Shown: positions 20,638 through 63,778 of the stretch, in pieces
How the letters are laid out: every line of letters starts with the position of its first letter
Position numbering within the stretch: the stretch's first letter is position 1
Origin: Acidobacteriota bacterium
GTDB lineage: Bacteria; Acidobacteriota; UBA6911; RPQK01; JADFOI01
Direction of reading: 5' to 3'
NCBI GenBank assembly: GCA_963663035.1
Contig: OY760074.1
Location: 2,880,001-2,944,000, forward strand
Length of the DNA: 64,000 nucleotides
Position numbers and translations under genes: made by a program
Notes under the pieces: model-generated
Databases searched by the model: none
Told to the model about the DNA's origin: nothing
The model's input: only the letters and a program-made list of their open reading frames with translations

Positions 20638-20848
20638 AGCCGGGATTATGCATAAGTATTCTACTGCAGTGCCGCAATCATCCACCCTGACCGCGTTGTG
20701 CGACCCGCAGGCGGGTAACCCTTGGGCTCCTCGGCGTACTGCATGAGTACACCTGCGGGGCCCGACCCGCAAGCGGGTACCCCTCCCACGCCTTGTCATC
20801 GCGGCGCCAGCGGCACTTCGTCACGAAAACTTACGCATAATCCCGGCT
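20638..20848 (+). repeat. Palindromic dispersed element, type 1, long form
   Basis: Ends AGCCGGGATTATGCATAAG / CTTACGCATAATCCCGGCT; very similar to 59438-59649. Confidence 0.92.
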
Positions 20849-21779
20849 AGCCCTGGACAAGGGGCTTCACGCGTGTTTGAAACAATTCCAGCTGTTCAAG
20901 CTCGTCTGCCAGGGGCCAGAGAAACACTCTCTGGGCGCCGGCAGCGGAGTAAGCAGCTAATTTCTCCGCACACCTTTCCGGCGATCCGATGAGCAGCTGC
21001 TGGCGCAACTCTTCGATGGGACGGTTCAGCGCTGGGCCAAGCACCGTGGAGAGAATCTGGTCAGCTCTGGAGCGGTCCTCAGTCAGGTACATCCACATGG
21101 TGGCAATGCCATTGGGGAAGGCCTCCGCTGCCTTTCCGGCCAAGGATAGTTGCTCCGAGAGATAACCGAGACCGTGCGCGAATCTCTCTGGAGTGGTGTT
21201 GTATCCCGAGGCCAGCCATCCGTCGCCGTAGCGGGCCGTGCGCCGCAACCCTGCCTTTGAGCCCCAGCTCGCCACCCAAATCGGGGGACCGGACTGCTCA
21301 GGGGGATAGGGCTCAAGCTGAATCCCTTCAGTCGAATAGAACTTTCCCTGGAAGCTTTCAGAATGCGGTGTCCAGAGGGCGCGCAGGACCTCAATGACCT
21401 CATCAAACCGCTTCCAGCGCTCTGGAAAAGGTACGCCAGCCGCCATGTAATCACGCTCTGAGGACCCGGGTCCGACACCGACCACGAGCCGTCCCCCCGA
21501 CAGGAGGCTGATGGCGCCGAGGGTCTTGGCGGTCAGGACAGGACCGCGCACCACCGGGAGGGAAACGGTTGTAGCAAGGGTCATCTCTCCAGATGATTCC
21601 ATCACCGCAGCCAGAGCCGTGTGACCATCTAACCACGGTCGAGAGAACAAGAGGTGATCATTCACGCACAGGAACGTGTAGCCAAGCTCAGCGGCCCGCT
21701 TGGTGTAGGTCCCGAGGTCGGCCAGTGAAAAGCCCTTGCCGGAGAAATCAATGAGGGGCAGATTAACACCGTATTCCAT
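20847..21779 (-). CDS. LLM-class flavin-dependent oxidoreductase
   Basis: NDH, LSGGRLVVGVG, PPIWVA, ARYGDGW; GGAGG before ATG at 21779. Confidence 0.9.
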   Translation of the reverse strand: MEYGVNLPLIDFSGKGFSLADLGTYTKRAAELGYTFLCVNDHLLFSRPWLDGHTALAAVMESSGEMTLATTVSLPVVRGPVLTAKTLGAISLLSGGRLVVGVGPGSSERDYMAAGVPFPERWKRFDEVIEVLRALWTPHSESFQGKFYSTEGIQLEPYPPEQSGPPIWVASWGSKAGLRRTARYGDGWLASGYNTTPERFAHGLGYLSEQLSLAGKAAEAFPNGIATMWMYLTEDRSRADQILSTVLGPALNRPIEELRQQLLIGSPERCAEKLAAYSAAGAQRVFLWPLADELEQLELFQTRVKPLVQG

Positions 21780-21841
21780 CCTGCCTCCAAGAGTGCTACG
21801 GTCCTGCCCACAATGCAAGGCTTTATTCGGATTCGGCACCT

Positions 21842-21919
21842 GAGGAAATGTGGGGACAGACTACCCGTTCACCTCATTTCAAAATGAGGTGAACGGGTAG
21901 TCTGTCCCCACATTTCCTC
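21842..21919. repeat. Perfect 38-bp inverted repeat with 2-nt centre (REP-like)
   Basis: GAGGAAATGTGGGGACAGACTACCCGTTCACCTCATTT-CA-exact reverse complement. Confidence 0.95.
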
Positions 21920-22222
21920 CCACATTTCTCTCCCTACCTCTGAGTCGGGTTTCAAACAGCCGGTCCATTTTTAATGAAACTTCTCCGATTTTGATTCGTC
22001 CTAATAGGTGAATGAGGATTATCCCCTCCCTCATTCGACACTCCTCCACTCCCCCGATGGTGAGCCTGGAGAAATCCGGGCTCACCATCACCTCCCCCAG
22101 CTTCTCTTCACCAAAAGTGTCAGCTAGAACCTGGAAGTTCGGTCGGACTTCAGTTAGCCTGTCAACCGGGAGTATGCATATTCCCGGTTATACCCTTCCA
22201 AGCGGAAGAGATTGGAACAGAA

Positions 22223-23038
22223 GTGGCACAGGTTAAGCCGACATCGTCACAGCGAACCACCTTGGCGCACCTCTATCGCAGCTATGAGGGTTTCGTCATA
22301 GGCTTCTGCTCGGTGATGTCTTTCCTGGTTGCTTGGGAGTCGATCGTGAGGCTCGGCTTTGTCAATCCACTCTTTCTGGCCGCACCCACTCAGATTCTTT
22401 CCTCGATACTGGAACTCTCCCAGACCCGCCTCTGGGAAGATATCTATGTGAGCGGTACGGAATTCCTGGTTGGTTTCTCCATCTCGGTGATCGTGGGGAT
22501 TCCTTTCGGACTATGGGTGGGTTGGAATCGAAGAACCTTTTATGCCGTTAACCCATTTTTGTCGGGTCTTTACGCGACCCCGCGGATCGCCTTATTACCT
22601 CTTTTGATCATCTGGGTAGGAATTGGAATATGGTCGAAGGTTTTGATGGTTTTTCTGGGGGCTATCTTCCCGATTGTCATGAGCACCATGGCCGGCGTGC
22701 GCAGCGCCGATCAGTCTCTCCTCCGGGTGGCACAGACCTTTGGGGCCTCGGATCTTCATCTCTTTCGCACCATCATTCTCCCGGGCAGCGTACCTTTCGT
22801 AGTGGCTGGTCTTCGACTGGGATTCGGGCGGGCGATCTTGAGTGTTATCGTGGCCGAGTTTTACGTCTCGACGAGAGGCCTTGGCAATCTCATCAGCTTC
22901 GCTGGGGAAACCTTCCAGACCTCCCAGGCATTCGCAGCCATCGTGATTGTGGCTTTTTTCGGTCTACTGGGCAGCGCCGCCCTGGAGCGATTGGAGTCGC
23001 GATTCGATCGCTGGCGTGCACCCAGCCAGCAAGGCTAG
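22223..23038 (+). CDS. ABC permease, SsuC/TauC/NitT family
   Basis: PRIALLPL, EAA-like loop AQTFGAS, IVAEF. Confidence 0.92.
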   Translation: MAQVKPTSSQRTTLAHLYRSYEGFVIGFCSVMSFLVAWESIVRLGFVNPLFLAAPTQILSSILELSQTRLWEDIYVSGTEFLVGFSISVIVGIPFGLWVGWNRRTFYAVNPFLSGLYATPRIALLPLLIIWVGIGIWSKVLMVFLGAIFPIVMSTMAGVRSADQSLLRVAQTFGASDLHLFRTIILPGSVPFVVAGLRLGFGRAILSVIVAEFYVSTRGLGNLISFAGETFQTSQAFAAIVIVAFFGLLGSAALERLESRFDRWRAPSQQG

Positions 23039-23039
23039 G

Positions 23040-23068
23040 TAGCCGGGATAAGGTAGAGACCCGGCTAG
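23040..23068. terminator. Hairpin between convergent genes, matching the ends of the type 1 repeat
   Basis: TAGCCGGG-ATAAGGTAGAGA-CCCGGCTAG. Confidence 0.55.
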
Positions 23069-23069
23069 G

Positions 23070-24962
23070 CTATGCCGGCGACTTATCAATCGTTGGCGTC
23101 CACGGTGTCTCGGCCCAGGCGACTCCGGTCCGTCTCACCTGGGCATCGATCAAGTAGGGTTTACCCTCCAGGGTGGCCCGCTTGGCCCTCGCCAATGCCT
23201 GCTTCAGTTGAGCGGGGGACTCGGCCACCTCGCCTTCCACTCCGAAGCCCTTGGCGATATAGGCCATATTCATGTCGGGCTTGCCCAGATAATCGCAAAC
23301 GAACTGACCCGTCTGCACCATCCGACTGTTGGGCGGAAGAGCTGAGATGACTCGGTTGTGGGGTCCGCCATAGGCATGGTTATTGTAGATCACCGTGATC
23401 ACCGGCAGTTCCAATCGAGCCATATTCCAGAGTCCAGTCGGTCCAAAAATAAAGGCTCCGTCCCCAGACAGAGCAATGACCTGCTGGTTGGGCTTGGCCA
23501 GCTTGACTCCAGCCGCTTTTCCGGTGGCTCCTCCCAGGTGGCCAGCGTAATAGGCGATGTGCTCCCGGCCGCCCATCGGGTTGAAGCCGAAGAACTGCTT
23601 CCCTCCCGTTCCGCCCGACTCATCCACAATGATGGCATCTTCGTCCGCGAATTGGGCGATCTCATAGGTGAGGCGATCCGACAGGATCGGGCTTCCATCC
23701 CAGTCCGGGTTCTTGGTCATCAGGGAGCTCAACTTCCTGGCCCTTTCGCTAAAGGCCCTCACCTTCTCACTTCGCTCCTGGGCCTTCCTCTTGATGGTGG
23801 GGGTCATGATGCTCTTGATGGCAGTGATCAGGTCGTCCTGACCATAGGCCACATCGGCCACCAGGGGAACCTCTACGGTAATGACATTGCCCATGCTGGC
23901 ACTGTCGAGCCGCATGTCAATGAACTTGATGTGACGCGGCACCAGCGGCGTGGTGCCAGTGTGCTGAAGCTTGTTTCCCACATTGATGACCACATCCGGG
24001 TTCTGCGTTCCCAGGGCACGTCCCCCCACCCACAGGGGATGGGCCTCGGGAAAGTTGGCAAAAACCTGCCTGTTCTGAGTCACCGGCATGCCCAGCAGTT
24101 CAGCCAGCTGGACCGCCTTGTCCACCGAGTTGGTCTTGTACAGTTCATCACCGACGATCAAGAGCGGTCGTCTGGCTTCCACCAGGAGCCGGGCGGCCCG
24201 CTCCACCTCTTTCGGATTGGGTCTGACTCGCATGCGCGGGTCCACCTTCTCTTGGGCGATAATCTCCGAGCGCACCTTTTCCTGAGTGTAGTCCGTGTGC
24301 CAGGTCGCATAGGTAGGACCATAAGGGGGAGTCCAGGCCACTTTAAAAGCACGACGTATCGTCTCCGGAATCATCTCCGCACGCCGCGCCAGCCAGTGCC
24401 ACTTGGTGATTGGCCCCACAATCTCCTCCTGATAGATCACTTCTTCGAAATTGTCCCGTCCGGCAGCCCGGCTCGGTTCATTGCGATAGCTGTAGTACAC
24501 CAGGGGCGTCTGTTCCTTCCAGGCGCAGTACATCTGTCCCATGGCATTCACCAGACCCACGATGGCCGCCTGCATCACGATGGCAGGTTCTCCTGAGGCC
24601 TGAATGTAGCCCATGGCCATAGCAGCTCCGGGACCTTCGTGAGGCGTGAGGATGTATTTGAGTTGCGGCCGGTCCACCAGGGCTTCGTAAAAAAAGGCGT
24701 CGCTGCTGGCCGAGTTCCCAAAGATGTATTTGACTCCCGAGGCAATCAGCTGCTCGGCAAAGGCCTCCCCTCCCGTCCCCTCAAAGACTCTCACCCCATC
24801 CGGGGAATCTCGGCGTTCTCCCTCCTGTCCGTGAACCAGCGGGGTCAGGGACTGGAGGACCGACTGGGCTGCCGCCAGCGAGACTCCCGTTTTCACTAGC
24901 CGGGTCACAAAGCCCCGCCGAGAAATAGATTTCGACAGATACTGGGCGACTAGTTCTCTCAT
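23070..24962 (-). CDS. Thiamine diphosphate-dependent enzyme (benzoylformate decarboxylase-like) with twin-arginine-like leader
   Basis: PHE catalytic Glu region, GDG...NN ThDP motif, N-terminal SRRGFV. Confidence 0.88.
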   Translation of the reverse strand: MRELVAQYLSKSISRRGFVTRLVKTGVSLAAAQSVLQSLTPLVHGQEGERRDSPDGVRVFEGTGGEAFAEQLIASGVKYIFGNSASSDAFFYEALVDRPQLKYILTPHEGPGAAMAMGYIQASGEPAIVMQAAIVGLVNAMGQMYCAWKEQTPLVYYSYRNEPSRAAGRDNFEEVIYQEEIVGPITKWHWLARRAEMIPETIRRAFKVAWTPPYGPTYATWHTDYTQEKVRSEIIAQEKVDPRMRVRPNPKEVERAARLLVEARRPLLIVGDELYKTNSVDKAVQLAELLGMPVTQNRQVFANFPEAHPLWVGGRALGTQNPDVVINVGNKLQHTGTTPLVPRHIKFIDMRLDSASMGNVITVEVPLVADVAYGQDDLITAIKSIMTPTIKRKAQERSEKVRAFSERARKLSSLMTKNPDWDGSPILSDRLTYEIAQFADEDAIIVDESGGTGGKQFFGFNPMGGREHIAYYAGHLGGATGKAAGVKLAKPNQQVIALSGDGAFIFGPTGLWNMARLELPVITVIYNNHAYGGPHNRVISALPPNSRMVQTGQFVCDYLGKPDMNMAYIAKGFGVEGEVAESPAQLKQALARAKRATLEGKPYLIDAQVRRTGVAWAETPWTPTIDKSPA

Positions 24963-25008
24963 TGTGTTCTCCTTATGTTACTTTAGGCGACACGTTCTTC
25001 CCCGGTCT

Positions 25009-25033
25009 GTTGGGGGAATTATATTCCCCCAAC
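25009..25033. promoter_or_regulatory. Candidate operator in a divergent promoter region
   Basis: GTTGGGGGAAT-TAT-ATTCCCCCAAC, perfect 11-bp inverted repeat. Confidence 0.5.
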
Positions 25034-25123
25034 TTGCAACGGGTCAACAAACGCTCTTGACTGAAAGACTGGTTAGCATCACTGCCGAAAATCGACTATA
25101 TTGAACCGCCACGAGACACTGCT

Positions 25124-25942
25124 ATGGCAGCCACACCCAAGCTGAAAGCGAGAGGAATTTGCGTTGACTATTTCCAGGCCCGGCTGGGTCAATCCATACG
25201 GGCTCTCTCCCACATCGATCTCTCGGTAAACGAAAACGAGTTTGTGACCATCGTTGGACCGAGTGGTTGCGGCAAGACGACCTTCCTCAACGTGGTTGCC
25301 GGAATCATCATGCCATCAGAAGGTGAGCTGTCCCTGGATGGGCGTCCGGTCAAGGGGCCGGGCTCAGATCGAGCGGTGGTCTTTCAGCAAGCGTCGCTTC
25401 TCCCCTGGCGACCGGTCCTGGGCAATGTCCTCTACGGCCTGGAATGTCAGGGCAAGGACGTCACGGCGGCCATGCCGCGAGCCAGCGAGCTGCTCGAGCT
25501 GGTGGGCTTGACCGGGTTTGAGCATCATTATCCGCATGAGCTTTCGGGCGGCATGCAGCAGCGCGTCAACCTGGCCCGGGCTCTCTTGATCGATCCTGAT
25601 CTTTTGCTCATGGATGAGCCCTTTGCGGCCTTGGACGCTCAAACACGGGAAATCATGCAAACCGAACTGTTAAGCATCTGGCAAAGGACGAGTAAGACAG
25701 TGCTTTTCATCACCCATCAGATTGATGAATCAGTTTTTCTCTCCGATCAAGTCATCGTTTTCGGTTCTCGCCCCGGTCGGGTAAAGGCCTGTATTCCGAT
25801 CCCCTTCAAGCGACCCCGCCAACTCTCCCTCAAGCGCACTCCAGAGTTCCTCGACTATATCGATCAGATCTGGGAGTTAATCGAAAGCGATGTGCGTTCG
25901 GCAGCCCGCGGCCAGAAAGAATCCGCTGCTTCGAGTGATTAG
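25124..25942 (+). CDS. ABC ATPase, SsuB/TauB family
   Basis: GPSGCGKT, LSGGMQQR, LLMDEPF. Confidence 0.95.
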   Translation: MAATPKLKARGICVDYFQARLGQSIRALSHIDLSVNENEFVTIVGPSGCGKTTFLNVVAGIIMPSEGELSLDGRPVKGPGSDRAVVFQQASLLPWRPVLGNVLYGLECQGKDVTAAMPRASELLELVGLTGFEHHYPHELSGGMQQRVNLARALLIDPDLLLMDEPFAALDAQTREIMQTELLSIWQRTSKTVLFITHQIDESVFLSDQVIVFGSRPGRVKACIPIPFKRPRQLSLKRTPEFLDYIDQIWELIESDVRSAARGQKESAASSD

Positions 25943-25954
25943 CCCGCCCTTCTC

Positions 25955-27268
25955 TTAGCGGATCATGGCCTCCGGCAGCCAGAGAACCAGCTGGGGCCAG
26001 AGCATGACCAGAATCAGCCCCAGGAGCTCCAACACGATAAAGGGCAAGATGGATCGGTAAATGTCCCCCATGGTGATCCCTTTGGGAACCACGCCCTTCA
26101 TGTAGAAGAGGTTCAATCCAAAGGGAGGGGTAATAAAGGCCAGCTCCATATTGATCGTGAAGAGGACACCAAACCAGATCAAATCGAATCCCAATTCTTC
26201 GCTCAGTGGTAAAAAGACCGGAAGAGTGATCATCATAATCCCGATGGGGTCGATAAACATTCCCAGGATCAGGAGGACAAGCTGCATTGCCAGGAGAATC
26301 AGCCATGGGTTCACTGCAACGCCCGAGACCATCCCCAGAATGAAGTTACCGGCTCCCGTTGCGGCGTAAATGTGTGAGAAGGCCTTGGCTCCCAACACGA
26401 TCCAACCCACCATGACAGAGAGTGTGAAAGCGTCGAGGGTGGCTTCCTGAAACATTGCCCAGGAAAACCGCCTCTTGAGGATTGCACACAGCAGAGCTCC
26501 AAAGGCTCCGATTGCCGAGGCCTCGGTGGGGGTGGCGACTCCCGTATAGATGGTACCCAGCACCAGCACGACCAGCGCCACCGGAAACATCACCGCCCTG
26601 ATGAGCTTGAACTTCTGGCCCCAGGAGATCTTCTCCTCTTCAGGAATGGAAGGGCCAAGATGAGGCTGGAAAAGAGTCCTGACACCTATGTATAGGACAA
26701 AGAGAGCGGCGATCAGGAGACCGGGAAGCACCCCTCCCATGAACAGTCTCCCCACCGATGCCCCTGACACACTGGCGAACACGATCATGATGATGCTGGG
26801 GGGAATCAGAATCCCCAGGGAACCTCCGGCGGAGATCGCACCCAGGGCGATGTCCTTGTGATAGTTTCTCCTGAGCATGGAGGGCAAGGCCACCAGGCCC
26901 ATGGTGACCGTACCGGCCGCACTCACTCCCGACATGGCGGCAAAAAGAGCACAGATGATCACCGTACCCATGGCCAACCCCCCTCTCAAGGAGCCCATCC
27001 AGTGGTACATCATTTCATACAGGTCATCGGCGATACCCGAGCGTGCAAGAAAGTTGGCCATCAGGACAAACAGCGGCAAGGCTACCAGTGTGTAGAGCGT
27101 CCAGGAGGAAAAGGCTGTCGTGGTCAGGAGGAAAAGAGCTTCAGGACCCATCCTCCACAGGGCCAGGACCACCGCGGTGGCGCCCAACCCAAAGGCAAGG
27201 GGCAGGCCGGACAGGAGCAGCAAGGCCAGAAAAACAAACAGAATCGCGGTGACTAATCCGATACTCAT
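25955..27268 (-). CDS. dctM: TRAP transporter large permease
   Basis: About 12 TM, LIPPSI, TPTEA, TPPFG. Confidence 0.93.
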   Translation of the reverse strand: MSIGLVTAILFVFLALLLLSGLPLAFGLGATAVVLALWRMGPEALFLLTTTAFSSWTLYTLVALPLFVLMANFLARSGIADDLYEMMYHWMGSLRGGLAMGTVIICALFAAMSGVSAAGTVTMGLVALPSMLRRNYHKDIALGAISAGGSLGILIPPSIIMIVFASVSGASVGRLFMGGVLPGLLIAALFVLYIGVRTLFQPHLGPSIPEEEKISWGQKFKLIRAVMFPVALVVLVLGTIYTGVATPTEASAIGAFGALLCAILKRRFSWAMFQEATLDAFTLSVMVGWIVLGAKAFSHIYAATGAGNFILGMVSGVAVNPWLILLAMQLVLLILGMFIDPIGIMMITLPVFLPLSEELGFDLIWFGVLFTINMELAFITPPFGLNLFYMKGVVPKGITMGDIYRSILPFIVLELLGLILVMLWPQLVLWLPEAMIR

Positions 27269-27840
27269 TCAGGCTCATCCTGCTGAGTCCTGGCCATTCG
27301 TTCCGACATTTCCACCTTCCCCGTGATTGCTGTCATGCAGTTCCGGATCAGATTGGCTGCACCCTGCAAAAGGGTGAGCAGGATACCTGCAGTCATCACG
27401 ATATAAACGGGATAAATGGGGGGGCCCCAGTAGGTGGGTGAGTGCTCCAAGTTGACAACGGCTTCGACTGTTGTCATCCAGGTGGCTCGCAGCAGAGCGA
27501 CAAGGAAGAGGAAAAAGAATAGTGAGGAAGCGACCCCCACAATGGCCTTGGTTCTGGTGCCCAGGCGATCATGCAGGATCGGTACATTGACATGTCCGCC
27601 ATGGAGCAGCAGATAGGCCCCTCCCAGAGCCGTACTGGCCAGGAAGAGGTATTGGGTGCTCTCCATGGCCCAAGTCGTGGGTGTCTTCAGGAAATATCGT
27701 GCTATCACCTCATAGGTCATGATGAACATCATGGCCGGAATGAGAAAAGCACTGAGTTTCCCGGTCCAATCACTGGCAGCTTCTATGGCTTCCAGAACGC
27801 GCCTGAGGTATGGGAAAAAAGGAGGAGAAAGACTACGAAT
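27265..27840 (-). CDS. dctQ: TRAP transporter small permease (start uncertain, possibly ATT)
   Basis: YEVIARY, WAME, GGHV; DctQ-like N-terminus lies upstream of the first ATG (27732). Confidence 0.82.
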   Translation of the reverse strand: MRSLSPPFFPYLRRVLEAIEAASDWTGKLSAFLIPAMMFIMTYEVIARYFLKTPTTWAMESTQYLFLASTALGGAYLLLHGGHVNVPILHDRLGTRTKAIVGVASSLFFFLFLVALLRATWMTTVEAVVNLEHSPTYWGPPIYPVYIVMTAGILLTLLQGAANLIRNCMTAITGKVEMSERMARTQQDEPE

Positions 27841-27886
27841 AACTGCCCTCCACTGGGAGAATGGAACAGGTTCGCCTGGGCGATGA

Positions 27887-28945: not shown

Positions 28946-29039
28946 TCTGGCCTCCCAGGCCCGTTATCACTACTCACTGAATGAACCGGATTAGGCCAGG
29001 ATTGTACTCCAAGATATAATCGGAAAAAAGAGGCAAGAT

Positions 29040-31139: not shown

Positions 31140-31144
31140 AGGCC

Positions 31145-32314: not shown

Positions 32315-32443
32315 GAATTGACTCCTTCAAAGAAGCATACCAATTATTCACAGCTCCGGGACTCCGTCAAGCGCATATTCCCAAGCGCCCGTTATGGTGG
32401 CTCTTTCTTGACTTTCTGTGAGTCGGCATGCAAGATGACGCCC

Positions 32444-36885: not shown

Positions 36886-37064
36886 AGCCCGCATTATGCA
36901 TAGGTTTTCGTAGCGAAGTGGCGCAGGTGCCGCGATGACAAGGCGTGTGACGAAGCGCCCCGCAGGCGTACTCTTGCAGTACGCCGAGGAGCGCAAGGAA
37001 ACACAACGCAGTCAGCGCGGATGATTGCGACGCTGTAGTAGAAAATCTATGCATGATGCGGGCT
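36886..37064 (-). repeat. Palindromic dispersed element, diverged type 1
   Basis: Ends AGCCCGCATTATGCATAG / CTATGCATGATGCGGGCT; shared internal blocks in reverse orientation. Confidence 0.88.
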
Positions 37065-44186: not shown

Positions 44187-44322
44187 TGGTTCTGATGGCG
44201 GGTGTTCAGGCAGGTCTAGATCGAGGCCGCACAAGCCCTTCGACCGCAGGCGTAGCCGGAGCTACGTTGAGGATCGAAGGGCGCGGAGAACGAAGAGCTT
44301 GGCCTTCCTGGACAGCCGCCAC

Positions 44323-47179: not shown

Positions 47180-47266
47180 GCTGGACTTTTTTCACTCAAT
47201 GGATAGAAATCTTGTCTTGACAGCTGTGTTTTGATATAAATCCAAGCTTCTGAGGTCCAGCCCATA

Positions 47267-48439
47267 ATGAATAGAAAACCACTTTTGCTCGTTCTTTTAC
47301 TTCCTTTTTTGTTCCTTTCGGCCTGTGGCGGCGAAGCCACAACGGCAACTTTTAATCGTATTGCGAATAATCGAACTGTCACCATTGGCTCAGTGCCCTT
47401 CGAAGCACCGTTACTGTATCAAGATGGCCAGAACTGGGTGGGACCGGATGCTGAGTTGGGTTGGCTGATCGTGGAAAGGATACGAGAAGATGTTGACGGG
47501 GGAGAAAATGCGGCCGAGATTGAAGGCCGGTTTATCGGCATGCAGCACGAAACTCTGGCCACCGCGTTAGAGGGTTCAGAGGTGGATATGGTTCTGGGTG
47601 TCTTTGGAATCACAGAGGAGCGAAAAGAGAAAGTTTTATTCTCCGAACCTTATCACAGCTTGGAACTCGTTCTCAGCATCAACCCTGTCTACAGCGACCT
47701 GAGTCCCGATTCCCTGGCCGGGGAGGATATTGGAGTTCGGCAGGGAACTGCCGTCGAGCAATTTGTGGAGGGGAAGTACCAGGATAGTACTATCGTTCCC
47801 TTCAAAACCCTTGACGACGCCATTTTAGCCCTCAGGAGGGGCGAGATCAGTGGAGTGATTGATGATCAGTACATGTCCGCTTATTCCCTGGATACGGTGC
47901 CCGGTGTATCTCACCTGGAACTCCTCCCGACAATAGTCGGGACAGTGGATTGTGCGGTTGCTGTGCAAAAAAAAGATACCCGTCTGCTGGAAATGGTGAA
48001 TGAAGTCATTGCCCAACTGCAGGCTGACGAGACCTATTCACAGTTGCTTGAGGGGGAACCTGAGGCTCAGTTAGCTCGGGTAATAGAGCGCCGTCCGGAG
48101 CGAGTGGAAAACGAGCGCCTGGCGGTGGAGCCCCGCAGCCTGGTCATCCAGATTAGCAAGGATGACAACTACGATTTTGACATCTATCGAATGGCCAACT
48201 TGAATATCACTCTCACCGAACAGGAAACTGGTCAGTCATTCACTTCCTCCCGGATCGATTTTCAGAGTAGCACGGGAGTCAGCGGCATCAAGGTTCCACC
48301 GGGCAGTTATAAGCTCGTGATCCCTAGAATGAACAACTGGTCTCCCGGCATAGTTGTCGTTCAGCCCTCCGATCCGAATCGGTTGACCATCCGCATTCGG
48401 CTGCAAATGGGAGGACAAGTGAGGATGACCAGAAGCTAG
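47267..48439 (+). CDS. Family-3 substrate-binding lipoprotein with extra C-terminal beta domain
   Basis: Lipobox LSAC, GPDAEL, ITEERK, FSEPY, GVRQGT. Confidence 0.85.
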   Translation: MNRKPLLLVLLLPFLFLSACGGEATTATFNRIANNRTVTIGSVPFEAPLLYQDGQNWVGPDAELGWLIVERIREDVDGGENAAEIEGRFIGMQHETLATALEGSEVDMVLGVFGITEERKEKVLFSEPYHSLELVLSINPVYSDLSPDSLAGEDIGVRQGTAVEQFVEGKYQDSTIVPFKTLDDAILALRRGEISGVIDDQYMSAYSLDTVPGVSHLELLPTIVGTVDCAVAVQKKDTRLLEMVNEVIAQLQADETYSQLLEGEPEAQLARVIERRPERVENERLAVEPRSLVIQISKDDNYDFDIYRMANLNITLTEQETGQSFTSSRIDFQSSTGVSGIKVPPGSYKLVIPRMNNWSPGIVVVQPSDPNRLTIRIRLQMGGQVRMTRS

Positions 48440-48447: not shown

Positions 48448-48735
48448 AGCCCGCACTTCTCACACCCGCTCTACTACAGCGTCGCAATGATCCGACCTGA
48501 CTGCGTTGCACGACCCGCAAGCGGGTACCCCTCACCTCCTCAACGTACTCAAGAGTACGTTTGCGGGGGGCCGACCCGTGGCGGGTACCCCTCGCGCGCC
48601 AGTCGGAGCCGCAGGCTTTAGCCTGCGGGCCCGTGGGCTAAAGCCCACGGCTCTGTTTTCCGGCCCTTCCGCCGCTTCGTGACGACCTGGTGTGAGAACC
48701 GCGGGCTTGCCCGCACTTCTCACACCCGCTCTACT
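48448..48735 (+). repeat. Palindromic element type 2 with nested REP-like doublet, plus a partial second copy
   Basis: Ends AGCCCGCACTTCTCACACC / GGTGTGAGAACCGCGGGCT (to 48707); first 27 nt repeated at 48709-48735. Confidence 0.88.
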
Positions 48736-48758: not shown

Positions 48759-48907
48759 AGCCGGGATTATTCATAGGTTTTCGTGACGAAGTGCCGCAGG
48801 CGCCGCGATGACAAGGCGTGCAAGGAGTACCCGCTTGCGGGTCGCACAACGTAGCCAGCGTGGATGATTGCGGCACTGCAGTAGAAAACTTATGCATAAT
48901 ACCGGCT
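48759..48907 (-). repeat. Palindromic element type 1, short form
   Basis: Reverse complement closely matches 58134-58283. Confidence 0.9.
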
Positions 48908-52539: not shown

Positions 52540-52567
52540 CTCTTTAAAGTGTTTGGAAGATTCGTGT

Positions 52568-54376: not shown

Positions 54377-54550
54377 TTTGGAAGAACCTCTCTGCTCTGG
54401 GCTGTCGCTCCACCAGAATACCGAGTGAGAATTCTCCGGGTCAATGATTCTGGCACTCAGAGGCACTTTGTCAGTGTCGCCTGTCAAAATTAGTCCACAT
54501 GTTTTCTCCACAGACAGTCTTGCCTAGCCTGATGTCAGACGGAAGTCTCA

Positions 54551-57500
54551 ATGCTTAGACTTGATCGGCTGGAACTAACTGGATTTAAATCGTTTGCGGA
54601 GAAAACCTCCATTCAGTTCGAGGGGGGAATCAGCAGCATCGTCGGACCCAACGGCTGTGGCAAGTCCAACCTGGCAGATGCCATCGGTTGGGTGCTGGGT
54701 AGTGGGAGCGCTCAAAGCCTTCGGGGCCAGAGAATGGATGATGTGATCTTCAGCGGAACCCGCAAACGCCGACCCTCCGGGCTGGTAGACGCAACCCTGG
54801 TCTTTTCTCGAGACGACAACAAGCCAATCGTTCTGAAAGAAACGGAGTTTTCCGGTGAAATCCTGGAGATTGGCCGCAAGCTTTATCGTTCCGGGGAAAG
54901 TGTCTACACAGTGAACCAGCGGCGTTGTCGGCTCAAAGACATCCATTCAGTGCTGGAAGAGGCAGGGCTCGGTTTCGCCTCTTACGCCCTCATTGCCCAA
55001 GGGAAGATTGGTTGGTTCCTGCGCGCCAAACCGGTGGAGCGACGTTCGGTCATTGAAGAGGCTGCCTGCATCACGGGATATAAGAGCAGACGGCGCAGTG
55101 CCGAAGTGAAGTTGGAACTGGCACAGCAGAACCTGCTGCGTGTGAACGATATCATTAGCGAGATAGAACGCCGACTCCGCTCGCTCAAGCGTCAGGCCGC
55201 CCAAGCCCGAAGCTACAAAAGAGTGAAGGAAGAATTCCGCCAGGTCCAGCGCCAGAAGTTTGTGCTGGAAGCACATCAGTTGAGAGTGGGTCTCCAGAGT
55301 CTGGACCGGGAGTTGGACCAGCTCAAAAAATCTGACGAAAATCTGAGCAAGGAACTGGTTCAAGGCGAGGAAGCTCATCGCGAGACTTTGAACAAGAGAG
55401 AACAACTGGAATCAGGACTTTCTCAGCTACGACAGACTTCATCAGAAACTCGACTGGAAACAGATCGGACTGAGAATTCAATTCAGTACCATGGTGAGCA
55501 AATCGAGGCCAGCCGAAAATCTCTGGAAATCAATGCCTCAGAACAACAAACGATTGCACAATCCCTGGAAAAGGTTGGGGAGGAGTTAACGCGTTTTCTC
55601 TCCGAGTGTATTACCTTGGAGAAAGAAGAGGAACAGATTGAAGCGGCCATCAACGAACAGACTGAAGTGGTTAACCGACATGAAGCTGAGGTGAAAGAAG
55701 CCGAGGGTCGGGCCCTGGAGCTTCAAACCCGGCTGCCTCGTCTGTCAGCCGAGACAGCCTCCTTCAACAACCTCAAGGGACAACTTGAGCAGCGGCTCCA
55801 GGCCGCTCACTCCAACCGCGAGCGTCTGGAGAGGGCACGAGCCAGTTCTTTGTTGAAGTTGAAAGAGAGCACGGCTTCCTTGACAACGACAAGGAGCAGC
55901 CTTGCAAAGAAGAAATCAGAGACAACTCTGCTGGCTCAGCGCTTGGATGAGCAAGAGACCCAGAAGCTGAATCTCCAACGGCAGTTGGAGGAAACCAAGG
56001 GGGAAGCAGAGGAGGCCCACCAGAAATTCATCGCCCAACGGGAACGACTTCACTCCCTTCAAGAGCTCCAGCTCAGTCATGCCCAGTACAGCGATGGAGT
56101 ACAGAGTATCCTGAAACACCTCAAGGCCACCGAAAGCGTAAGAACTGGGGGTACCCTGGCTGAATGCATTGAGACCAGTCCGCGCTATGAAAAGATGGTG
56201 GAAAAGTTTCTCGAAGAGGAGCTGGAATATATTCTTGTGGATTCCCTGGATGAGGCGCTCGTTGGAATCTCAGAGTTGAGAACACTGAAAAGCGGACGGT
56301 GTACTTTCCTGGCTCTTTCTTCATCCAATGGTTTTCAAAAAAGTAATTCCCACAACCCCATAGTTGGAGCTTCATCAGGTAACGGTGTTCACGGAATGCT
56401 GAGCGACTTGTTGCAGATGAACCCTGAAATCAAGAAGGCTTTTAACCGCGCCTTACCCCAGAGAGCAGAAGCTATCGTGGTTTCCAACCTGGAGAAAGCT
56501 CTTGAACTCGCTCCCCAAAATCCTGAGCGCACTTTTATCACCTTGGACGGGGAATCCCTCACTCCCCGCGGATTGCTGTCGGCAAGTGCCGTCCAGGAGC
56601 AAGAACTGGGGCTGCTGAGTCTGAAGAGACAGAAAAGAGACCTGGAAAATACGATTCTGGAGGTCCAGAAGAGAAGCCAAACGCTTCGAGAGAAACAGGA
56701 ACAACAGCAAGAACAGCTACGCGAGACTCTAAAGTTCTTTACAGACAAGGAAGAATCCCTTCGCCAGTTGGAAAGGGAAATGATCGGCTTGACTCACCTG
56801 GAAGAACAGTGGGAAAGGGAACAAACACTACAAGAGCAGGCGCTGAAGGTCATTGAAGGTGAGATGGCCCAGCTACTGCTTGAACAAGAGCAGCATGCCA
56901 GGGAGATCACAGAAGTCGAAGAGCAATTAGCCGAAAAGAAAGGCCAGCAGGCCTCAAAGGAGAAGCTGCTGTCGCAGACTCAGGACTCCTTGCAACAGCT
57001 CAGGGTAGAGCTCGGGCGGATTCGCGAGCAGCTTCATTCGCGCTCCTCTGATCACAAGGTCTTGGGTGAACGGCGCCTGGCACTCGACCGAGCCGTGGAA
57101 CGGCTAGAGGAACAACGACAAGCTTTTGAGGTTCGCAAAGAAATCACCCAAACAACTCAGCAACAACATGAAGAACGATTGGAGAAGATGACGGCAGCTC
57201 TTGAAACCTTGAGGGCAGACTTCTCCCGCTACCAGAAAGAAGCAGCGCAACTGGCTTCCACTCTCCAGGAGCGGGAAGAGGAATATGAGAGGTGGAAAGA
57301 AGATTATCCGAAGACAGAGGAGGGGTTGGTCGCTTCTCGAGGACGCAAGGCTGAGTTGCAGGAAGAGCGGGCTCAGGTGGATGTCCAGCGGGCACGGGTG
57401 GAGACTCAACTCCAACACATCAACCAGCAGGTCTTGGAGCAACTTCAAATGTCTCTGGATGAGGCTGCTGAAGGAATCGATCCGAAGCAGGTGAGTGAAG

Positions 57501-58135
57501 AGGTTGGCCAGCAACACAGTGATCTCAAGGTGCGCCTGGATCGGTTCGGTCCAATCAATATGGCCGCCTTGCAGGAATACCAGGACATTGAAAAGCGTTT
57601 CAATTTTCTCGACTCACAGCGCCAAGACATTGAGAAATCGATTGCTGACACCACACGGGCGATCCAGGAAATCAATCGACGAAGCCGAGAAAAGTTCAGC
57701 CATGCCTTTGAAGCGATCAATTCACACTTCAACGAGATTTTTCAAAAGCTCTTTGGAGGTGGCGAATGTGGGATGCGGCTCTTGGACGAAGAAGATCTTC
57801 TGGAGAGCGGTCTGGATATCTATGCCCAGCCTCCTGGGAAGAAACTTCAAAACGTCAGGCTTCTCTCAGGCGGAGAAGAGGCGCTGACGGTGTTTGCCCT
57901 TCTGATGGCCATTTTCACTCACCGCCCCAGCCGCTTTTGTGTCCTCGATGAAGTGGACGCACCTCTTGACGATGCCAATGTTGTCCGTTTCACAAACCTT
58001 ATTCAGCAGATGAGCGAGCAAACTCAGTTCATTGTCATTACTCATAACAAGCACACAATGAAGTCGGCCAATGCTCTTTACGGTATCACCATGGAGGAAG
58101 CGGGCGTTTCTCAGGTGGTGTCGGTAAAACTTTAG
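54551..58135 (+). CDS. smc: Chromosome segregation protein SMC
   Basis: GFKSF, GPNGCGKSN, coiled coils and hinge, LSGGE, LDEVDAPLD, ITH. Confidence 0.96.
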   Translation: MLRLDRLELTGFKSFAEKTSIQFEGGISSIVGPNGCGKSNLADAIGWVLGSGSAQSLRGQRMDDVIFSGTRKRRPSGLVDATLVFSRDDNKPIVLKETEFSGEILEIGRKLYRSGESVYTVNQRRCRLKDIHSVLEEAGLGFASYALIAQGKIGWFLRAKPVERRSVIEEAACITGYKSRRRSAEVKLELAQQNLLRVNDIISEIERRLRSLKRQAAQARSYKRVKEEFRQVQRQKFVLEAHQLRVGLQSLDRELDQLKKSDENLSKELVQGEEAHRETLNKREQLESGLSQLRQTSSETRLETDRTENSIQYHGEQIEASRKSLEINASEQQTIAQSLEKVGEELTRFLSECITLEKEEEQIEAAINEQTEVVNRHEAEVKEAEGRALELQTRLPRLSAETASFNNLKGQLEQRLQAAHSNRERLERARASSLLKLKESTASLTTTRSSLAKKKSETTLLAQRLDEQETQKLNLQRQLEETKGEAEEAHQKFIAQRERLHSLQELQLSHAQYSDGVQSILKHLKATESVRTGGTLAECIETSPRYEKMVEKFLEEELEYILVDSLDEALVGISELRTLKSGRCTFLALSSSNGFQKSNSHNPIVGASSGNGVHGMLSDLLQMNPEIKKAFNRALPQRAEAIVVSNLEKALELAPQNPERTFITLDGESLTPRGLLSASAVQEQELGLLSLKRQKRDLENTILEVQKRSQTLREKQEQQQEQLRETLKFFTDKEESLRQLEREMIGLTHLEEQWEREQTLQEQALKVIEGEMAQLLLEQEQHAREITEVEEQLAEKKGQQASKEKLLSQTQDSLQQLRVELGRIREQLHSRSSDHKVLGERRLALDRAVERLEEQRQAFEVRKEITQTTQQQHEERLEKMTAALETLRADFSRYQKEAAQLASTLQEREEEYERWKEDYPKTEEGLVASRGRKAELQEERAQVDVQRARVETQLQHINQQVLEQLQMSLDEAAEGIDPKQVSEEVGQQHSDLKVRLDRFGPINMAALQEYQDIEKRFNFLDSQRQDIEKSIADTTRAIQEINRRSREKFSHAFEAINSHFNEIFQKLFGGGECGMRLLDEEDLLESGLDIYAQPPGKKLQNVRLLSGGEEALTVFALLMAIFTHRPSRFCVLDEVDAPLDDANVVRFTNLIQQMSEQTQFIVITHNKHTMKSANALYGITMEEAGVSQVVSVKL

Positions 58136-58283
58136 CCGAGATTATTCATAAGTTATCTACTGCAGTGCCGCAATCATCCACGCTGACTGCGTAGTGCGAC
58201 CCGCAAAGCGGGTACCCCTCGCACGCCTTGTCATCTCGGCGCCTGCGGCACTTCGTCACGAAAACCTATGAATAATCTCGGCT
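58134..58283 (+). repeat. Palindromic element type 1, short form; both ends overlap TAG stops
   Basis: Ends AGCCGAGATTATTCATA / TATGAATAATCTCGGCT. Confidence 0.92.
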
Positions 58284-58518
58284 AGCCTCTTCCCTTCTTC
58301 TCGATTCCGTGTTCCCGGATTTTCTTGGAGAGCGTATTTCGATGAACGCCCATGGTTTCGGCTGCGCGGCTCAGGCTTCCATTCGTTTCCTTCAGGACGC
58401 GCAGGATAAAGAGCTTTTCGAACTGGGAAACGGCTTCAGACCAGTAAATTCCCTTGGTCACCATCTCATCAATGAGCTTCTCGAGTACCTGTTTGATTTT
58501 GGTCTGTTCGGCGCTCAT
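58282..58518 (-). CDS. Fis-type helix-turn-helix protein
   Basis: FEKLFI, GSLSRAAETMGVHRNTLSKK. Confidence 0.88.
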   Translation of the reverse strand: MSAEQTKIKQVLEKLIDEMVTKGIYWSEAVSQFEKLFILRVLKETNGSLSRAAETMGVHRNTLSKKIREHGIEKKGRG

Positions 58519-59420
58519 AGCACTTCATCCAAGTTTCTGCCCGTCAGGCGAAAATAAGCTTCCAAGTAGCGCCTTGAGGTGGCTTCCACGATAGACTCGG
58601 GAAGCTCCGGGCCGGGAGGGGTTTTGTCCCAATCAAGCGTCTCTACAAAATCGCGAATGAATTGTTTGTCGAAGGAAGGCTGAGATTTTCCCGGTTCAAA
58701 TCCATCAGCCGGCCAGAATCGGGAGGAGTCCGGTGTGAGAGCCTCATCGATGAGGAGCAGGCGTGAGCCCTCCATACCGAATTCAAACTTGGTATCGCAA
58801 ATGATAATGCCTCTCTGAAAGGCAAGTTTTCGGGCTCGCTTGTAGAGTCGAAGGCTCAGGTCTCGTACCTGTTCCGCCAAGTCAGGTCCAATGATCTCGG
58901 CAGCACGCTCAAAGCTGATATTCTCGTCATGGCCCGTTTTCGCCTTGGTGGACGGAGTAAAAATCGGTTCAGGAAGCTCTTCTGACTCGCGCAGTCCCTT
59001 GGGCAACTGCTCTCCACAAATCGTTCCACTCTGGCGATATTCTTTCCAGCCCGACCCGGCCAGGTAACCCCGCACCACACACTCGATAGGAAGAGGACTA
59101 CACCTTCGAACCAGCATGGAACGACCTGCCAACTGCTCCCTGAAGGCACTCAGGGAAGCTGGAAACTCTTCCACCCGGACAGAGATGAGGTGATGAGGGA
59201 CAATCCCTTCCAGTTGCTCAAACCAAAAGGCAGAAAGTTGGGTCAAAACCTTCCCTTTCTGAGGGATCGCATCGGGCAATATCACGTCAAAGGCCGAAAT
59301 TCGATCAGTTGCAACCATGAGAAGCTGGTCGTCCAGCGAAAACATCTCCCTGACCTTTCCTTGGCAAACTTTGGGAATTCCAGGCAGTTCCTGCGTCTTG
59401 ATAGCTGTTTCTCGTCCCAC
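58515..59420 (-). CDS. purC: SAICAR synthetase
   Basis: GKVRE, TDRISAFD, ECVVRGY, DTKFEFG, TPDSSRFW, FDKQ. Confidence 0.96.
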   Translation of the reverse strand: MGRETAIKTQELPGIPKVCQGKVREMFSLDDQLLMVATDRISAFDVILPDAIPQKGKVLTQLSAFWFEQLEGIVPHHLISVRVEEFPASLSAFREQLAGRSMLVRRCSPLPIECVVRGYLAGSGWKEYRQSGTICGEQLPKGLRESEELPEPIFTPSTKAKTGHDENISFERAAEIIGPDLAEQVRDLSLRLYKRARKLAFQRGIIICDTKFEFGMEGSRLLLIDEALTPDSSRFWPADGFEPGKSQPSFDKQFIRDFVETLDWDKTPPGPELPESIVEATSRRYLEAYFRLTGRNLDEVL

Positions 59421-59437
59421 TGGCCTCTCTCCTCCCA

Positions 59438-59649
59438 AGCCGGCATCATGCATAAGTCATCTACTGCAGGGCCGCAATCATCCACGCTGACTGCGTTGTG
59501 CGACCCGCAAAGCGGGTACCCCTTGGGCTCCTCGGCGTACTGCATGAGTACGCCTGCGGGGCCCGACCCGCAAGCGGGTACCCCTCGCACGCCTTGTCAT
59601 CGCAGCGCCTGCGACCCTCCGTCACGATGACCTATGCATAATCCCGGCT
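59438..59649 (+). repeat. Palindromic element type 1, long form
   Basis: Very similar to 20638-20848. Confidence 0.92.
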
Positions 59650-59718
59650 AGTGATTCTATATGGAAGATGGGCAACAGGAAAACTTCCATCAGAAAAAGG
59701 GTTAAGTTTTCTAATCGC

Positions 59719-59774
59719 TTGACAGCCTGAAAAATCTGTTGCTATAGTTAGCAGTCAATCAAGGGGAGTGCTAA
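59719..59774 (+). promoter_or_regulatory. Sigma70 promoter and CIRCE (HrcA operator)
   Basis: TTGACA-N18-TATAGT; TTAGCAGTC-N9-GAGTGCTAA at 59748-59774, one mismatch to CIRCE. Confidence 0.9.
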
Positions 59775-59866
59775 ACAGACAACGTAATTACCTGTGGAAG
59801 CTGGTGTTTCTCAAGCTTCCACATTTTTTTGAACCTAAAGATTAGCAAGAAAGGAGCATACAGCTG

Positions 59867-60187
59867 ATGAAGATCAAGCCTTTACATGATCGAGTTTTAG
59901 TCAAGCGACTGGGCAACGACGAGGAGGAGATTCGAGGTGGAATTGTCATTCCTGATACGGCCAAGGAAAAACCTCAAGAGGGAGAGGTCGCGGCTGTCGG
60001 GGATGGGAAGGTCCTGGACAGTGGAGACACGGTCAAACCGTCGGTGAAAGAAGGAGACCGGATCCTGTTTGGGAAATATTCGGGGACAGAAGTAAAGATC
60101 GACGATGAAGACTTCCTGATCATGCGCGAGGACGAAATTCTGGGAATTTTGCTCTCCAAGAAAGTCAAGGTCAAGGTTCAGGCATAA
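59867..60187 (+). CDS. groES: Co-chaperonin GroES
   Basis: [25 protein letters not shown]. Confidence 0.97.
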
Positions 60188-60236
60188 AGAAGACAAGGAC
60201 TTAGATAACGACTTAAGAAAGTCTTACCCGGTTTAA

Positions 60237-61901
<1,665 letters not shown>

Positions 61902-61942
61902 TCTAAGGCGTCCGCTCTGAGAGCGGACAAGAGAATACTGCA

Positions 61943-61971
61943 GCAGCGCCCGCTTTTAGAGCGGGCGCTGC
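61943..61971 (+). terminator. Hairpin after groEL
   Basis: GCAGCGCCCGCT-TTTAG-AGCGGGCGCTGC; T-rich tract further downstream. Confidence 0.6.
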
Positions 61972-62029
61972 ACACTCCTACCGGGTTTTCCCCTTTTTTC
62001 TTTTTTCTTTTTTCTGCACAATAGCGCCC

Positions 62030-63631
62030 GTGACTCAAAAATGGTCTGTGGCGTTGTTTTGTGGCAGCGTCATCTACCTGACGCTTTTTTATCAGCTGGG
62101 CAACCTGGCCTTTCTCGGTGCGGATGAGCCCCGTTACGCCCGCATTGGCGAGGAAATGAACCTGCGGGACAGCTATATCACTCCAACCCTGAATTTTCGA
62201 CCTTGGCTAGAGAAACCCCCCTTACTGTTCTGGCTGGAGGCGGGTAGTTTCCAACTTTTCGGAGTTCACGAATGGTCGGCCCGACTGCCGGTGGGAATCG
62301 TGGCCCTGCTGTCACTGCTCATGATGGCCCTACTGGCCTTTAAGCTTGCAGGTCCTCGCGTCGCCATTCTCACTGTCTTGATCTTATCCACTTCAATGCT
62401 CTTCGTTGCCTTTGCCCGGGCTGCCAGCACCGATACGCTCCTGGTTGCGCTGCTCAGCGCGGCTATGGTTTGTGGCTTTCAAGCCACCCGCGGCAGCTCC
62501 ATCCTGTGGGCAGGCAGCGCCGGGGTGGCACTAGGTCTTTCCGTGTTGGCCAAAGGACCTGTGGCGGTGGTTCTCTTCGCCGGCATCTTTGGACTTTACT
62601 TTCTGCTTGAACAAGAAATCGGTTGGACCGCGCTACAGATCGCCGTGGCAGCGAGCCTCTTTTTGGTGACGAGTGTTCCCTGGTTTTGGCAGGTTTGGGT
62701 GGAGAATGGATACGATTTCATAGCCACCTTCTGGCTCAATCATCACCTGGCACGCTTTTTCACCGATATCCACCATCACTCCCAACCCTTCTGGTATTAC
62801 CTGGCTGTGGTGGCCTTAGGTTTCTTCCCCTGGGTTTGCTTCCTCGGTTCCGCCTCCTTACGCACCTGGCGGCGGGGCAGGCATCTTCTCAGTTCCGCCT
62901 ACCGCCCTGAACTCTTTCTATGGCTGTGGGTGGGAGTGCCCTTTGTTTTCTTTTCACTCAGTGAGAGCAAACTGGCGGGTTATATTCTGCCAGTGTTCCC
63001 ACCACTGGCTGTGATTGTTGCCATGGAGTGGGAACACTGGCTCAAAGGTGATCTGATTAGCCATCGCCTGATGCCTGCCCAACTCCTGGCGCTGGTAGGA
63101 TATGGCCTGGTTGTGGCTGTTTCATTGATCTGGGGTTCTTACTCGGCATACGGTGCGCTGGGTCTCGGCATCCTTTTGGCCTTACCGATTTTAGGAGGGA
63201 TCACCTGGGCTTACCTTAAGTTCCGGCAACATCGTCCTCTGGCTATCTTCTTGTCCCTGGTGGCAGCTATGACCTTATTTACGGCACTCACCTTTTGGAG
63301 GGCGGCCCCGGTGGTTGATGATTACCACTCCGCTCGAGATCTCAGCCAGCTCATCCTTCCTGAAATCTCCGCCAACGAGCCCTTGCTTCTTTACCGATAT
63401 TTTCATCACACCGCTCATTACTATACGAACTATCAAACTGCCCAGGAATCGTTATCAGATCTGGCAGGACTTCAAGACTACTTTCAAAACCATCCCCAGA
63501 GTCGATATTACATCCTCACTCAGGAATCAGGCTGGCGCCAGCTTCAGCAGCTCGAGCTCAGTCTGGTTCGACATCAGGGTAATCTCTACCTGCTTGAAAT
63601 CACTCCCCCAGTTCCGGAGGAAAACCATTAG
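62030..63631 (+). CDS. ArnT/PMT-like (GT83/GT39) membrane glycosyltransferase
   Basis: DEPRYA, EKPPL, LAKGP, KLAGYILP; many TM helices. Confidence 0.9.
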   Translation: MTQKWSVALFCGSVIYLTLFYQLGNLAFLGADEPRYARIGEEMNLRDSYITPTLNFRPWLEKPPLLFWLEAGSFQLFGVHEWSARLPVGIVALLSLLMMALLAFKLAGPRVAILTVLILSTSMLFVAFARAASTDTLLVALLSAAMVCGFQATRGSSILWAGSAGVALGLSVLAKGPVAVVLFAGIFGLYFLLEQEIGWTALQIAVAASLFLVTSVPWFWQVWVENGYDFIATFWLNHHLARFFTDIHHHSQPFWYYLAVVALGFFPWVCFLGSASLRTWRRGRHLLSSAYRPELFLWLWVGVPFVFFSLSESKLAGYILPVFPPLAVIVAMEWEHWLKGDLISHRLMPAQLLALVGYGLVVAVSLIWGSYSAYGALGLGILLALPILGGITWAYLKFRQHRPLAIFLSLVAAMTLFTALTFWRAAPVVDDYHSARDLSQLILPEISANEPLLLYRYFHHTAHYYTNYQTAQESLSDLAGLQDYFQNHPQSRYYILTQESGWRQLQQLELSLVRHQGNLYLLEITPPVPEENH

Positions 63632-63778
63632 CCCGCAATTCTCACACCCGCTCTACTGCATCGACGCAAGGACCGACCTGACGGTGTTGCGCGACCCGCA
63701 CAAGCGGGTACCCCTCGCGCGCCTTGTCAGGCCGGTCCTTGCGCCGCTTCGCGACGACCTGGTGTGAGAAATGCGGGC
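63630..63778 (+). repeat. Palindromic element type 2, short form
   Basis: Ends AGCCCGCAATTCTCACACC / GGTGTGAGAAATGCGGGC. Confidence 0.88.

Follow-up and report, generated by a model that had tools for sequence, protein, structure and literature searches.

The 64,000-nucleotide stretch analyzed here (positions 2,880,001 to 2,944,000 of contig OY760074.1 from an Acidobacteriota bacterium; hereafter the window) carries seven copies of a palindromic element, all of them intergenic and 145–256 bp long when bounded by terminal CC and GG, with copies 2 and 4 inverted relative to the other five (Table 1). All seven were found where an earlier note, made from the sequence letters alone, had placed them, and they fall into two groups according to their terminal inverted repeats (TIRs), namely type A (five copies) and type B (two copies). 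The note had also proposed that the copies have no coding capacity, and this was borne out: their stop-free frames span 39–63 codons, and the three long open reading frames (ORFs) overlapping them had no match in Pfam or NCBIfam, so that a coding role of the RPE type was thereby not seen. Likewise, no transposase, RAYT, HUH, or reverse transcriptase family was detected among the 53 window ORFs scanned. [quoted passage not shown]

Table 1 Element copies and associated features of the window, with positions counted from its first nucleotide
Feature	Position	Strand	Description
Copy 1	20640-20846	-	207 bp; IS1380-like TIRs of type A; central core and two hairpin modules; profile score 111.7 bits; flanks CAAG / CTAG, the stop codon of a luciferase-like gene lying inside CTAG
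Copy 2	36888-37062	+	Standard 175-bp form without added module; type A; core 36960-36990; flanks TAAG / CTAG
Element Z	44196-44321	+	126 bp; core 44244-44273; non-IS1380 ends; adjoins the stop codon of a radical SAM gene
Empty site	47265-47275		Just past the start codon of a solute-binding protein gene; a 174-bp copy is present there in the L063 genome
Copy 3	48450-48705	-	256 bp; type B; two modules; core 48537-48566; nested insert; flanks TTAG / CTTG
REP-like inverted doublet in copy 3	48601-48654		GGAG/AGAG tag plus hairpin with TTTA loop; bounds approximate
Partial second type B end	48710-48735	+	Directly after copy 3, with a common 4-bp CTTG; absent at the same L063 site
Copy 4	48761-48905	+	145 bp; type A; central core deleted
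Copy 5	58136-58281	-	146 bp; type A; core absent; flanks TTAG / CTAG, TAG being the SMC stop codon
Copy 6	59440-59647	-	208 bp; type A; two direct-orientation modules around core (59529-59559); between purC and groES
Copy 7	63632-63777	-	146 bp; type B; flanks TTAG / CGAC, TAG being the stop codon of the upstream gene

Relatives were sought in species-representative genomes with a degenerate pattern of the type A end, which yielded at least 100 loci (numbered below with the prefix L); among the 100 listed, 17 Acidobacteriota genomes contributed 83, a single further genome 8, and other phyla 9. A partner end was present within 400 bp in 71 of the 100 listed loci, and none within that distance in the remaining 29. 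After removal of 3 loci with a doubtful partner or a different interior, and addition of 6 copies from a profile search and the 7 window copies, the final set comprised 81 elements of 49–265 bp with a mode of 175 bp, including many deleted forms of 49–146 bp.

The ends of these elements could be compared with those of complete insertion sequences (ISs). In a Planctomycetia metagenome-assembled genome (MAG; L033), ends of this type bound a 1708-bp element with CTAG on both sides and a 482-amino-acid transposase ORF, which matched the NCBIfam IS1380 model (NF033539) at 313 bits (cut-off: 180) as well as Pfam DDE_Tnp_1_4; a transposase gene between such ends was what the earlier note had suggested looking for. 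The right end of this IS is the same as the L004 and L037 ends for 23 bp, although the match over the first 18 nt is inherent in the search pattern, and identity then drops to 9/37, i.e., the MITE and IS interiors are unrelated. As a pattern-independent check, IS1380s were identified by a protein search of plasmids and 10 were fetched: a script located both ends in 7 of them, and these ends start with CC, mostly carry CA at positions 12–13, and are flanked by CTAG, TTAG, or CTAA. Window ends match IS1380 ends at 11–15 of 15 positions, with the right end of copy 7 reaching 15/15 against the IS1380 of L106 and the other type B ends 13–14, while among 5241 CC-starting 15-mers from the plus strand of the window, 3 reach 14 matches and none 13 or 15 (compared with ends other than those of L033). 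Copy 7 also matches the right end of IS1380A (L108) at 14/16 positions, the boundary having been set by eye. More generally, the MITE ends are both similar to the right end of the IS. In the 81-element set, hardly any variation is seen at positions 1, 2, 12, and 13 (CC at 1–2, CA at 12–13), and positions 3, 5, 9–11, and 14 are variable; the fixed CC and CA are among the best-conserved positions of IS1380 ends, and most of the variable positions (3, 5, 9, 11, and 14) vary there too. According to the accessible part of PMC9330008, IS1380-family transposases accept imperfect ends, which fits a reading of these ends as tolerant TIRs.

Judged by sequence, the ends of the window element are IS1380-family TIRs, and on the features tested (length <500 bp, multiple and mainly intergenic copies, no transposase, IS-type TIRs, and an interior that is not that of an IS) the element is a type II MITE, whose mobilization we infer: an IS1380-family transposase would act in trans on its TIRs and insert it at a CTAG-like site. 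The earlier note had taken the co-varying ends as an argument against a DDE enzyme, which did not hold, as the positions that vary in the MITE mostly vary in IS1380s as well. The two end types reflect the diversity that occurs naturally among IS1380 TIRs, and subfamily structure thus accounts for a large part of the apparent co-variation.

The empty site in the window provides the one clear filled/empty pair, with two more, poorly alignable, in L005/L044. The flanks of the L063 locus are 87–95% identical to the window DNA, a similarity that most likely places both in one Acidobacteriota group, and the filled site is longer than the empty one by the element and about 4 further bp. The earlier note had suggested looking for empty sites in relatives, and its suggestion of a non-autonomous mobile element is supported. 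Flanks consist of a 4-bp CTAG-like site, and an exact 4-bp direct repeat is found for 19 of the 81 elements, compared to 12.6 expected (p 0.006), with direct repeats other than CTAG numbering 6 against 0.8 expected. The claim that no consistent target duplication exists is half right, having missed the CTAG-like site itself. CTAG is present on exactly one side of 38 elements, and AG and CT are kept beside the ends whatever the outer bases (NNAG...CTNN in 67/81, the search pattern having forced WAG on one side in 68/81).

An exact 4-bp duplication is absent in 62 of the 81 copies, and this majority would suit a rival explanation in which a structure-recognized element moves as single-stranded DNA (ssDNA) through an HUH (RAYT/IS200-type) enzyme, or via RNA, its IS1380-like ends being a relic or a coincidence. 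REP-like inserts (REP, repetitive extragenic palindromic), a strand-asymmetric fold, covariation of inner stems, and a core common to elements with unrelated ends, all described below, would suit it too. However, ends and flanks match real IS1380s for the two TIR types separately, exact non-palindromic 4-bp duplications are in excess, and neither HUH nor reverse transcriptase families were among the scanned window ORFs. Moreover, of two identical IS1380 copies in Pseudanabaena, one (L105) has the same mixed flanks, TTAG/CTAG, and the other (L104) has CTAA/CTAA. We thus regard movement by an HUH enzyme or via RNA as improbable, and the REP/HUH substrate invoked in the earlier note does not describe the whole element, which has IS1380 TIRs, only its nested inserts being REP-shaped.

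Returning to movement by an IS1380-family transposase, simple decay of a 4-bp duplication was rejected as an explanation for the flanks, because mismatches are mostly at the outer bases. We prefer a reading in which insertion would be staggered by 4 nt, and bases from the donor flank would travel with the element and be repaired in patches; alternatively, AG/CT may belong to the element, or decay may have been accompanied by selection. Donor bases are carried along in this way by piggyBac, with its 4-nt overhangs. IS1380 is presented as the piggyBac outgroup, with CCC ends and a 4-bp target, in the accessible part of PMC10813416. The flank pattern would then be a natural read-out of IS1380 transposase cutting. 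A CTAG-like 4-bp target would also account for the frequent position of copies at TAG stop codons, which the flanks of copies 1, 5, and 7 overlap, and beside other copies. In L014, L017, L091, and L093 (4/81), tandem copies have one common CTAG between right and left ends, a new copy having entered the flank of one already there, and the partial type B end next to copy 3 probably represents such a tandem insertion, later deleted via microhomology.

We next consider pairing within the element. Ends differ between copies and largely pair within each copy, as the earlier note had described: 5 of the 7 window copies (all except 4 and 6) offer an end no better partner than their own opposite end, and the first 15 nt of copy 5 are identical between both ends, with a G-to-A change on both sides. 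Agreement between ends across the 81 elements exceeds permutation at position 3 (77 vs 52.4) and position 11 (70 vs 41.9), and is also raised at positions 5, 9, 10, and 14. Some concerted change would have come on top of the subfamily structure, either by fold-back copying or by selection for pairing. Among 28 standard-length copies, 95.1% of cells are paired, compared to 87.0 ± 0.4 after shuffling, and 29 of 54 pairs display a two-sided change against 13.5 when shuffled (0/500), including inner stems far from the TIR, with the caveats that the structure was derived from the same alignment and that the sequences are related. The interior adopts a rod-shaped fold; that of copy 6 as a whole reaches −106.7 kcal/mol (z = −6.3), and 0/200 shuffles were as good. 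A loop-E motif considered for the outer internal loop was dropped, as it conflicts with the co-varying stem register. With an interior tree as control, end covariation amounted to 2.5, 1.8, and 3.9 vs 0, 0, and 0.2 on 3, 2, and 5 independent pairs, which is not significant with so few pairs. The earlier note had named a match to catalogued IS ends combined with non-significant covariation as the outcome that would speak against its proposal; the ends do match a known IS family, while pairing is conserved, with covariation of both ends and inner stems exceeding shuffles, and significance was out of reach for the tree-controlled test with so small a number of pairs.

This lack of significance would be expected from an ordinary IS1380-derived MITE in which the structure is not selected, the fold being a by-product of symmetry from slippage or gene conversion and the common core a trace of old nesting. 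Orthologous copies exchanging or losing modules in place, elements inserting beside and into one another, and an orientation untied to transcription are also in line with this explanation. Yet symmetrizing copying predicts equal numbers of G-T and A-C mismatches, whereas stems outside the pattern-biased end contain 28 G-T cells vs 8 A-C cells (16 vs 7 distinct column types), and what stays constant from one end type to another is the unpaired, purine-rich motifs, the paired columns having been rewritten. On balance, an unselected by-product appears unlikely, albeit the least unlikely of the alternatives. The RNA fold is better on the G-T-favored strand in 25 of the 28 copies, and the strand-biased G-T together with compensatory change points to selection on a single-stranded fold, either RNA or ssDNA.

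If that fold were an RNA, the element could be a host non-coding RNA or mRNA-stability element with a cellular function, spread secondarily via capture between IS ends. The RNA-like fold and the fact that copies have long been retained at orthologous positions of related genomes would be consistent with such a role, as would the RNase III/E processing of Correia and ERIC transcripts described in the accessible parts of reviews. For 54 elements with enough flank, in which gene direction was called by codon score, the folding strand was sense to the flanking genes in 18 and antisense in 10 of 28 tandem contexts; this sense bias is weak (p 0.18), and host mRNA is therefore not shown as the reason for the fold. 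Presence or absence differs between close relatives, many forms are deleted, and neither a sigma-70 promoter nor a terminator was called in copy 2. The comparison with Rfam suggested by the earlier note assigned the element to no family: the window had 0 matches at gathering threshold, and scans by E-value gave none at gathering, the sole overlap with a copy being a small nucleolar RNA at E 3.9. A host RNA thus seems highly improbable, more so than any other explanation weighed here.

The interior of the MITE is modular, and the optional hairpins reported in the earlier note were recovered: an ACCCGC-loop-GCGGGT module occurs 0–2 times per window copy, and copies 4, 5, and 7 lack the CGTAC..GTACG hairpin at the center. 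To each side of the core, the GACCGAG-type motif can be replaced by a 20-bp hairpin module in either orientation; this module was found only in family members and would represent a REP-like hairpin entering at these motifs. Copy 5 is the expected product of copy 6 after deletion between its two direct modules. Copy 4 and its L063 ortholog have the same flanks and the same TIR mismatch, but the L063 copy keeps the core and the two differ by the core and a 12-bp piece; modules therefore change in place. Loss of the core may have occurred by such in-place deletion, e.g., between two direct copies of the 20-bp hairpin. The nested doublet of copy 3 is REP-like in its architecture.

The core is also present in elements with other ends. 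A first core-bearing model, built only on IS1380-ended copies, matched L004:787–961, which was not in its training set, at 49.3 bits on one strand, compared with 12.4 for the opposite strand, and with almost no gaps along 175 positions; in this locus the TIR pairs have nearly all changed, but the unpaired (purine-rich) motifs are kept. A relative in L042 scored 42.8 bits. In the window, the core model matched positions 44217–44301 of element Z (27.3 bits, E 7e-5), again outside the training set and with a third kind of end, and the core pattern had 4 window matches vs 0 in 100 shuffles. The list of seven copies in the earlier note was thus incomplete, having overlooked element Z. Scores of ~27 bits from model R1 are not evidence alone, because an unrelated perfect hairpin (L062:3093–3232) obtains 27 bits on both strands.

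Two further sets of palindromes were observed around these loci. Family X (L004:783–965, L042:847–1026, and an end only at L035:3195) includes ~180-bp palindromes with non-IS1380 ends, which differ between copies yet pair within them, and IS1380-type copies directly abut family X ends in L004 and L035. Family Y (L063:3133–3404, L062:3672–3941, and L068:2642–2912, with ends in L043, L053, L059, and L088) includes ~270-bp palindromes with another end type, also co-varying within copies, one of which occupies the site beside the ortholog of copy 3. Family Y was not accepted as a core bearer, its core-model scores being 13.4 and 11.5 bits (E 0.5 and 1.6).

Taken together, these matches hint at a core under single-strand structural selection that would have been combined with TIRs belonging to two or more kinds of transposase. 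In its broadest form, which we put forward tentatively and with more doubt than belief, one ancient structured core (a hairpin, a conserved internal loop, and purine-rich flanking motifs) would be the unit that persists in a superfamily of miniature elements spread across bacteria, and that swaps whole TIR pairs between transposase families (IS1380; those of X and Z; Rickettsia RPE-5; Salmonella Sal-1), with a fold on a defined strand aiding transposition or persistence, and CTAG-targeting IS1380 transposases would carry donor flank bases in a piggyBac-like manner. Should Acidobacteriota, Rickettsia, and Salmonella all have elements with this core between unrelated ends, several repeats that bear separate names would be one lineage changing its transposase partner, and the reason why such MITEs conserve an RNA-like fold would become testable. 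Without this link, the result would be a modest one, namely an IS1380-type MITE that is abundant and apparently undescribed.

Several observations weigh against movement by IS1380 transposases or the shared core, in addition to the scarcity of exact duplications, the AG/CT retained beside the ends, the pattern-inherent part of the L033 match, and the limits of the pairing, tree, and orientation tests given above. The GC content of the window copies is 55–66%, whereas MITEs are described as typically AT-rich. No IS1380 transposase was detected in the window or in other L001–L100 loci except L033 (about 0.49 Mb of Acidobacteriota loci searched). Finally, no IS family was found behind the X and Z ends, including in BLASTN searches of plasmids, phages, and E. 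coli genomes.

Other elements of the same or similar kind were noted among the relatives. A 149-bp element in a Planctomycetia MAG (L031:6–154) has the same type A ends and CTAG flanks with a different interior, and is possibly a direct IS1380 deletion derivative. L006:3004–3052 and L058:471–735 are hybrids that combine a type A end with a type B-like one, and the two end types can therefore recombine. A MITE in L045 (about 214–3018) is split by an IS21-family element, and from L100:304 onward other DNA interrupts an end that in L006 belongs to a complete 49-bp mini-element. In L066:2698–3142, two copies in opposite orientation enclose a ~115-bp segment, itself with inverted-repeat ends. AT-rich palindromes of 7-bp tandem units (L070:2795–2936, L071:4518–4712, L082:354–525, and L047:3596–3684) recur in several host genomes. 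Elsewhere in the window, a perfect 38-bp inverted repeat with a 2-nt loop (21842–21919), upstream of the luciferase-like gene, is unrelated to the MITE (core model E 0.9), and a long hairpin at L062:3092–3233 resembles it. A protein kinase ORF (6211–6804) covers profile positions 1–160 of 263 and is followed by a 176-amino-acid ORF without family match, perhaps as a split gene.

We finally compared the element to known systems. When the copies, their relatives, family X, and element Z were compared by BLASTN with plasmids, phages, and genomes of E. coli, there were no or short chance-level matches (best E 0.1); the three matches that were fetched are not matched by the core model, and two or three are in apparent coding DNA. 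In the open literature, most subscription papers being outside the search, neither this family nor a MITE with IS1380 ends was found described, and the accessible parts of PMC4133298, PMC3281130, PMC11602168, PMC2779907, PMC5896051, and PMC3184786 gave no such MITE; the MITE catalog of PMC11602168 may hold these sequences unnamed. Complete IS1380 elements (L033; L106 from Stutzerimonas/Pseudomonas; L107, ISPosp7; L108, IS1380A) have, like the MITE, CC-starting TIRs of ~15–23 bp, CA at positions 12–13, and CTAG/TTAG/CTAA flanks, but the MITE lacks a transposase, has an unrelated interior, and displays exact duplications in only a minority of copies. Type II MITEs, as defined in the accessible part of a review in which IS1380 occurs 0 times (PMC10969869), are likewise <500 bp, intergenic, and multicopy, with TIRs, a stable stem-loop, and IS similarity confined to the TIR; unlike them, the element described here is GC-rich, with IS1380-type ends and a core common to families with other ends.

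Among named repeats, Rickettsia RPE-5 and Salmonella Sal-1 contain, within a long palindrome, a hairpin resembling the core (CCG(C/G)AG-CGTA, loop, TACGT-GAGG), a likeness seen by eye and without score in the accessible part of the PMC2267715 supplement, where the layout is found in 14/27 Sal-1 rows and several RPE-5 rows (rco:5, 29, 35, and 37). The 3' arm of Sal-1 also resembles family X by eye, while the inner stem of both repeats is one pair shorter than in the MITE and their ends are unrelated (PMC2267715). Correia elements have an optional internal module as well (107 vs 155 bp in the accessible part of PMC2229807). The Neisseria Correia/NEMIS and pneumococcal BOX elements contain motifs also seen in the MITE (CAAGGCG and GCAACG in NEMIS, CAAGGCG in BOX), which are short, and they differ from it in being TA-flanked and AT-rich with other ends. 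ERIC/IRU elements are similar in their long imperfect palindrome, central hairpin, and, by eye, motif order; one E. coli copy (L111), which we take to be an ERIC, was matched neither by the two covariance models nor by the hidden Markov model. The 20-bp module and the copy 3 doublet have the tag-plus-hairpin shape of REP/REPIN/BIME elements, making the element a mosaic, but unlike those elements with their RAYT, the whole MITE has DDE-type TIRs and 4-bp sites, and the scanned window ORFs include no RAYT family. For most named bacterial repeats of similar size, no mobilizing enzyme had been tied down, RUP alone having a proposed transposase at that date (accessible part of PMC2229807), whereas the ends of this MITE point to a specific family, IS1380, which makes a direct assay possible.

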